From a virus (Duplodnaviria > Heunggongvirae > Uroviricota > Caudoviricetes), in IMG/VR virus record IMGVR_UViG_2531839667_000013: 52,688 nt of DNA; one strand, given 5' to 3'. This document shows positions 43,701 to 43,762 of the stretch, piece after piece; position 1 is the first letter of the stretch, and every line of letters starts with the position of its first letter. The position numbers and the translations under genes are program-made. The notes beneath the pieces were generated by a model, which saw only the letters and a program-made list of their open reading frames with translations, had not been told where the DNA came from and did not search any database.

Positions 43701-43762
43701 CGGTCTCGAAAACCGGAGTAGGGGCAACTCTACCGGGGGTTCAAATCCCCCTCTCTCCGCCA
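43701..43762 (+). other. Partial tRNA-Ser (serU, anticodon CGA) 3' fragment (62 nt): attachment-site repeat
   Basis: CGGTCTCGAAAACCGGAGTAGGGGCAACTCTACCGGGGGTTCAAATCCCCCTCTCTCCGCCA equals the 3' part of recalled E. coli serU; the 5' half of the tRNA is absent. Confidence 0.8.

Follow-up and report, generated by a model that had tools for sequence, protein, structure and literature searches.

A 62-nt serU fragment as the probable displaced 3' end of a tRNA gene between a lambdoid effector prophage and a PAI-serU-type island

The 62-nt sequence at positions 43701-43762 (plus strand) of the 52.7-kb window, by which we mean the whole stretch of 52,688 nucleotides analysed here, is very probably the 3' part of a native Escherichia coli serU gene that was displaced when a lambdoid effector prophage entered serU, with a variant of PAI-serU as the adjoining element. 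Judged by comparison with related genomes, the 62-nt block and the arm upstream of it are the attR of a lambdoid prophage carrying nleB2, nleC', nleH' and nleF, and the island on the other side has no more than the terminal 14 nt (43749-43762) in common with it. The prophage ends at 43762 and the island starts at 43763, the 14-nt site of the island being nested within the final bases of the prophage end.

The fragment reads CGGTCTCGAAAACCGGAGTAGGGGCAACTCTACCGGGGGTTCAAATCCCCCTCTCTCCGCCA and matches the terminal 62 nt of the native E. coli serU gene at 62/62 positions, as seen both in genomes with an empty site and in strain Nissle 1917. It covers tRNA-Ser(CGA), anticodon CGA, from position 28, the second base on the 5' side of the anticodon stem, to the CCA, and includes the anticodon loop, the long variable arm, the whole T arm and the acceptor strand on the 3' side. 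The 5' part of the tRNA, 28 nt, is missing; AT-rich DNA unrelated to serU stands directly 5' of the fragment, with ...TCGGTATCAT in the window against ...CTGAACGGAC in the gene. The 62-mer is present once in the window with up to three mismatches permitted (none expected from shuffles), and no tRNA is called at 43701-43762 by ARAGORN or by Rfam at its gathering threshold; the full serU gene of relatives is called tRNA-Ser(cga) by ARAGORN. This exact, single-copy match without a tRNA call bears out the initial annotation, which had recognised here only the 3' 62 nt of tRNA-Ser(CGA). That annotation had also regarded the fragment as the kind of att repeat that integration into a tRNA gene leaves behind, and the attR structure is indeed matched in relatives and in a census of genomes. 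Its further claim, that the fragment divides the effector-carrying end of a prophage from an AT-rich island with alpA, agrees with the nle genes to the left and with AlpA and a GC content of 31-44% to the right.

A role of the fragment as a functional RNA in itself, for instance as a truncated tRNA-like sRNA or as a signal for the processing or termination of prophage transcripts, would be in keeping with its intact variable-arm and T-arm hairpins, with its 100% conservation and with a sub-threshold Rfam match on the minus strand that reflects a tRNA-Ser-like structure. However, neither ARAGORN nor Rfam makes a tRNA call, a promoter and terminator scan found no promoter-like site upstream and no terminator-like site, the perfect conservation is accounted for by a recent origin from the native gene, and the Rfam match reaches 40.9 bits against a gathering score of 68 and belongs to a plastid family. 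We therefore regard such a role as highly improbable, and an independently expressed tRNA-like RNA was dropped because the scan was empty upstream of the fragment. The Rfam match itself, to RF04351 (Plastid-psbl-rps4 3'UTR; 43708-43759, minus strand), was the best in a scan at a permissive E-value that gave sub-threshold matches only. The family seems to represent a plastid tRNA-Ser-like sequence in antisense, and we take the match, itself an antisense tRNA-Ser-like one, to be spurious here.

Upstream of the fragment lies the right end of the lambdoid prophage (39829-43491, plus strand), delimited by Pfam matches and by the RefSeq annotation of collinear relatives. Lambdoid late and tail genes precede nleB2 (39829-40809), which looks intact, and are followed beyond it by a remnant of nleC (40843-41133, a 96-aa N-terminal piece), a remnant of nleH (41527-42231, shortened, and annotated in relatives as frameshifted with an internal stop), an nleF gene that looks intact (42417-42986), and a remnant of a ykgJ-family gene (43318-43491, minus strand), of which NZ_CP076706 carries an intact version at the same position. 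The nle cluster terminates at the serU attR, and this combination of late genes, nle cluster and serU attR end identifies the element as an effector-carrying lambdoid prophage at serU.

The P arm of the prophage attachment site consists of about 210 nt of non-coding DNA (43492-43700, plus strand) directly 5' of the 62-nt fragment. The final 123 nt of this arm are kept upstream of the fragment in B2 strains, and the B2-strain prophages with that 123-nt arm have the same int module and a different (sheathed-tail) late region; conservation of the 123 nt despite the different late region is the behaviour that would be expected of a phage P arm. The 9-mer CTTGGAATA is found at two places in the P arm (43589-43597, plus strand, and 43653-43661, minus strand) and nowhere else in the window, and in relatives it is repeated two to three times just 3' of the intact serU. 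By analogy with lambda, these motifs are candidate arm-type Int sites. The window begins inside the prophage, whose early region (1-6865) differs from that of the closest relative. Further features of the prophage are the sok antitoxin RNA of a hok/sok module, a pair of tRNA genes downstream of the Q region and a homologue of the STnc100 sRNA (6037-6186, 10816-11068 and 11839-12011); ARAGORN calls the two tRNAs as Met(cat) and Arg(tct), the first of which is annotated as tRNA-Ile in RefSeq relatives.

The ownership of the repeat was addressed in a comparison set of 5,426 complete E. coli genomes, using a census with four 340-nt junction probes for which only a true junction was able to reach 80% coverage. 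The empty site, with serU followed by the native flank, was found in 3,856/5,426 genomes, and intact serU directly followed by the island in 340/5,426. The phage arm and the 62 nt, followed by the chromosome on the yodB side, were present in 834/5,426, and the tandem form of phage arm, 62 nt and island in 45/5,426. A single genome of the 5,426, NZ_CP148334 (strain Z1323HEC0423), matched the 2.1-kb junction of the window, at 98.6% identity. Reading from left to right, this genome has mtfA, an intact serU, a tyrosine integrase, a DUF4224 gene, a lambdoid prophage of about 50 kb, nleF, a ykgJ remnant and the 62-nt fragment, followed by the island, a second tyrosine integrase, CCCTCTCTCCGCCA, the native chromosome and zinT. 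Its island encodes DUF6387, AlpA, H-NS, RepL, a MobQ relaxase and thin-pilus genes, among others.

Genomes with one element alone show the same ends separately. NZ_CP024131, which has the prophage only, has the same attR followed at once by the yodB flank, with serU and int at the left end, and many prophage-only genomes, among them O145:H28 strains and atypical EPEC (e.g., 14EC007), match the window up to exactly 43762. Nissle 1917, which has the island only, carries an intact serU and then island sequence identical in its start to 43763 onward, and the far end of its island consists of an intact 406-aa integrase, a 14-nt repeat and the native chromosome. Three relatives with the same attR (NZ_CP148334, NZ_CP024131 and NZ_AP022533) have an intact serU in the same orientation at the opposite prophage end, with int inside.

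Because the 834 prophage-only genomes share the arm together with the 62 nt, both the length of the fragment and its 5' boundary are set by the prophage. The opposite assignment would make the fragment the island's own att repeat, with a core of 62 nt and a prophage that merely abuts it, and could appeal to the island sequence starting right after the CCA, at 43763. Yet island-only genomes carry a complete serU and no fragment at the junction, just 14 nt are repeated at the other end of the island, and the identical 62-nt block and arm occur in 834 genomes without the island, all of which leaves this assignment with almost no credibility. The initial annotation had held that the element to which the repeat belongs could not be decided here. 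This remains true of the window taken by itself, which, as that annotation had observed, lacks an integrase (no homologue was detectable by tblastn with the integrase of either element as query) and an intact serU (ARAGORN). The owner is nevertheless decidable by comparison, the phage setting the 62 nt and the island sharing the last 14. The intact serU, integrases and second repeats that the annotation had advised looking for were found in relatives, with all of them present in NZ_CP148334, and no relative examined has an intact serU without matching second repeats, the arrangement it had named as contrary evidence.

As belongs to a displaced tRNA-gene fragment, the sequence combines serU identity with a regenerated gene and adjacent integrase in relatives, empty sites in other genomes and a recognised sublocation of recombination. 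By extrapolation from the relatives, the distal ends in the window's own genome, which fall outside the window, would comprise the intact serU, both integrases and the second 14-nt repeat.

The position of strand exchange can be narrowed down by two alleles in the variable arm. Next to the phage int, the intact serU of three relatives has the variable arm GGAGTGGGGGCAACTCCACC, with G and C at the equivalents of 43720 and 43731. All displaced fragments, from the window and four relatives, have GGAGTAGGGGCAACTCTACC, with A and T, and A and T also stand in unoccupied serU copies and in the intact serU of the strain with the island alone. The two substitutions compensate for each other, changing an A-U pair to G-C, and are phage-derived, and the resulting host/phage hybrid serU, intact in the lysogens (L005 7719-7808; L004 11848-11937; L007 9145-9234), is still called tRNA-Ser(cga). 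Since the G/C alleles lie in the int-side serU and the A/T alleles in the displaced fragments, the exchange is placed 5' of 43720. From these alleles we infer that the strand-exchange interval of the prophage integrase is the anticodon stem-loop CGGTCTCGAAAACCGGAGT (43701-43719, plus strand), within which the exact crossover would fall.

We suggest the following scenario. A lambdoid T3SS-effector prophage would have integrated in the anticodon stem-loop of serU through tyrosine-integrase recombination, with the phage attP bringing its own copy of serU positions 28-CCA, as the distribution of the variable-arm alleles would lead one to expect. This copy would now complete a functional serU at the int-proximal end of the prophage, outside the window, while the original 3' part of serU would have been moved about 50 kb downstream to form the attR core, with the P arm 5' of it. 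The island's separate P4-type integrase would recombine at another sublocation of serU, from the T-stem/acceptor-stem junction through the CCA. This use of a different sublocation would explain why the island shares just the last 14 nt of the fragment, and for the same reason each element could in principle excise without disturbing the sites of the other. Excision of the phage would leave a restored serU directly followed by the island, and after excision of the island the fragment would adjoin the yodB flank (CTTTATCAATGAC) directly. Both predicted excision products match common natural configurations (340 and 834 genomes, respectively).

The structure of the attP is a putative one, reconstructed as P arm, phage-type core and P' arm. 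When it was used as the query, contiguous attP (P arm, core, P' arm, int) was found in 0 phage records at a coverage of ≥80%; the partial matches were to prophage-derived records with serU and int, or to phages with an attR scar and chromosomal flank. The order of the two insertions is undecidable from sequence, because an island-first and a phage-first history predict the same arrangement: in the former the phage would enter the regenerated gene, and in the latter the island would enter the intact 3' subsite of the fragment.

Rather than through site-specific events in this lineage, the tandem could have been built by homologous recombination that brought a chromosomal segment from a donor with one element into a recipient with the other, with serU, its flanks or shared element sequence providing the homology. 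Both single-element configurations are common, the tandem form is seen with at least three different prophage late regions, and prophage replacement at serU has been reported (PMC7067040). The window island also differs from that of the closest relative in an internal segment and shows 91-94% identity further on, which suggests a mosaic history. The junction does not demand such an event, however, as direct integration into the regenerated serU or into the 3' subsite of the fragment yields the same sequence, and homologous recombination would alter the history and not the nature of the fragment. We consider this route unlikely, though less so than the other alternatives weighed here, and we retain the displacement of the native serU 3' part by prophage integration as the preferred reading.

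The integrases of the two elements, as observed in relatives, have nothing in common beyond membership of one family: that of the phage is a 341-aa ORF with a Phage_integrase domain, and that of the island has 406 aa with Arm-DNA-bind_3, Phage_int_M and Phage_integrase domains. RefSeq annotates the phage int as frameshifted in three relatives (e.g., L005 7836-8886), though the 341-aa ORF with its catalytic domain is intact. The discrepancy sits at the extreme C-terminus, which overlaps the CTTGGAATATTTT repeats; the last codons of the phage int come from tandem CTTGGAATATTTT repeats of the P' arm, so that repeat copy number may alter the C-terminus of Int. We do not conclude that the phage int is a dead gene. 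The island int is a pseudogene by annotation in the closest relative, NZ_CP148334. Given these annotations of a frameshifted phage int and a pseudogenised island int, the current mobility of the elements is uncertain.

On the 3' side of the fragment, the window takes in the initial 8.9 kb (43763-52688, plus strand) of an integrative mobilizable island of the PAI-serU type, which continues past the window end, and GC drops to 31-44% from 43763 onward. The gene order is DUF6387 (43983-44876), AlpA (45021-45311), small ORFs, H-NS (48216-48620, minus strand), DUF4756 and RepL (50249-50830, minus strand), with DUF6387, AlpA, H-NS and RepL assigned by Pfam. The serU-proximal copy of the island's 14-nt direct repeat, CCCTCTCTCCGCCA, lies at 43749-43762 (plus strand), from the T-stem/acceptor-stem junction through the CCA, and in both NZ_CP148334 and Nissle 1917 a second CCCTCTCTCCGCCA, followed by native chromosome, adjoins the island integrase at the distal end. 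When the two arms of the island were compared by k-mers, they gave only weakly shared 8-mers (TGCATAAA and its inverse), and no island arm sites are claimed.

The island is collinear with that of Nissle 1917 over 43701-46337 (97.2% identity) and 48216-52023 (94.0% identity), the exception being 46338-48215. This segment is unlike all four PAI-serU relatives compared, with a 437-aa ORF (46691-48004, minus strand) replacing the DUF6404 gene. The 437-aa ORF has no Pfam match, and its N-terminus carries an MBL-fold motif resembling defence-associated MBL proteins (PADLOC LmuA 2.8e-10, RTasMBL 2.8e-9, PDC-M48B 3e-8); a 108-aa ORF (46351-46677, plus strand) adjoins it. The segment may represent defence cargo in a variable slot. 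As to tcpC, the gene is present in the Nissle 1917 island at a position that falls beyond the window end, and none is annotated in the NZ_CP148334 island, where IS100 disrupts that part. Insertion at the serU 3' end, gene order and sequence all identify the window island as a variant of PAI-serU.

Some similarity is also seen beyond the CCA. Both the native flank and the phage P' arm have the motif TCAAT(G/C)A(C/T)TTA 5 nt past the CCA, whereas in the island the distance is 15 nt, and imperfect similarity extends past the CCA when window positions 43763-43790 are set against L005 7809-7835 and L003 45497-45520. The shared motif suggests that both elements took serU-like 3' flanks from earlier hosts.

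The fragment and the tandem arrangement are ordinary, being already known in kind and in sequence, and with known parts and a textbook mechanism they open no new question. The pairing of this nle-effector prophage with a PAI-serU variant is uncommon, as one of the 5,426 genomes shares the junction and 45 have any tandem form. The main value of the analysis is for annotation, in that it provides base-precise boundaries for two mobile elements, and it marks the serU of such lysogens as a phage/host hybrid gene with a compensatory base-pair change.

Free lambdoid phages carry a related block. In mEp332 (L010 2501-2860) and ev099 (L011 2501-2860), as well as in PhiR70_1, the P arm and a 62-nt fragment with the native alleles are followed by E. 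coli chromosome from the yodB side, and the block has tail-fibre genes on one side and an AraC-type regulator on the other, with the integrase about 2.4 kb away. It resembles an attR scar that took host flank along through imprecise excision or recombination, and it gives these phages a portable copy of the serU 3' attB subsite. One could imagine that the nested 14-nt site matters in itself, either through in-situ packaging into the island (lateral transduction following late or failed excision) or through phage-borne fragments serving as landing pads for serU islands, the idea of a portable pad deriving from the attR scar and chromosomal flank in ev099 and mEp332; we consider this very doubtful.

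Both elements have close counterparts among described systems. The prophage resembles those at serU in STEC O145:H28, where a prophage carrying nleB, nleF and nleH has been described (PMC7067040), and in atypical EPEC; these share the att arm and the 62-nt fragment, with about 97-98% identity over 15.8 kb. In the O145:H28 prophage and in Escherichia phage SerU-LTIIb (KU052038.1), which has the att arm and the 62-nt fragment too, cargo genes likewise lie between the tail-fibre genes and attR, and in the SerU-LTIIb record the 62 nt flanked by the tail-fibre genes and yodB already bear the annotation of a tRNA-Ser pseudogene. The difference in both is that yodB, and not an island, stands next to the fragment.

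For the island, the counterpart is PAI-serU (PAI VII536, PAI-CFT073-serU, with a copy in Nissle 1917), the ExPEC island that encodes TcpC. PAI-536-serU and PAI-CFT073-serU are 22 kb long with a GC content of 38% and encode TcpC (PMC7545054). The window island agrees with this group in insertion site, gene order at the left end and low GC, with 94-97% identity to the Nissle 1917 copy over the shared parts. It differs in its cargo at 46338-48215, where the 437-aa MBL-fold ORF takes the place of the DUF6404 gene, and in lying behind a prophage instead of adjoining an intact serU.

Taken together, the arrangement follows the principle on which the Islander method is based, namely displaced tDNA fragments and tandem arrays at a single tRNA gene (Hudson, Lau and Williams, 2015; PMC4383910). 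Three crossover subsites are recognised there for tDNA-integrating elements: the anticodon loop, the T loop and the T/acceptor junction (PMC4383910). As that principle has it, a 3' tRNA-gene fragment, oriented as the regenerated gene, marks the end of an element, and in a tandem array each member comes with a fragment and an integrase of its own. The phage fragment begins in the anticodon stem (subsite A), and the island repeat lies at the T/acceptor junction (subsite J). Sublocation classes of this kind were reportedly set out by Williams in 2002. The present case differs in nothing of kind; its two members use different subsites, and the second repeat is therefore nested inside the first fragment.
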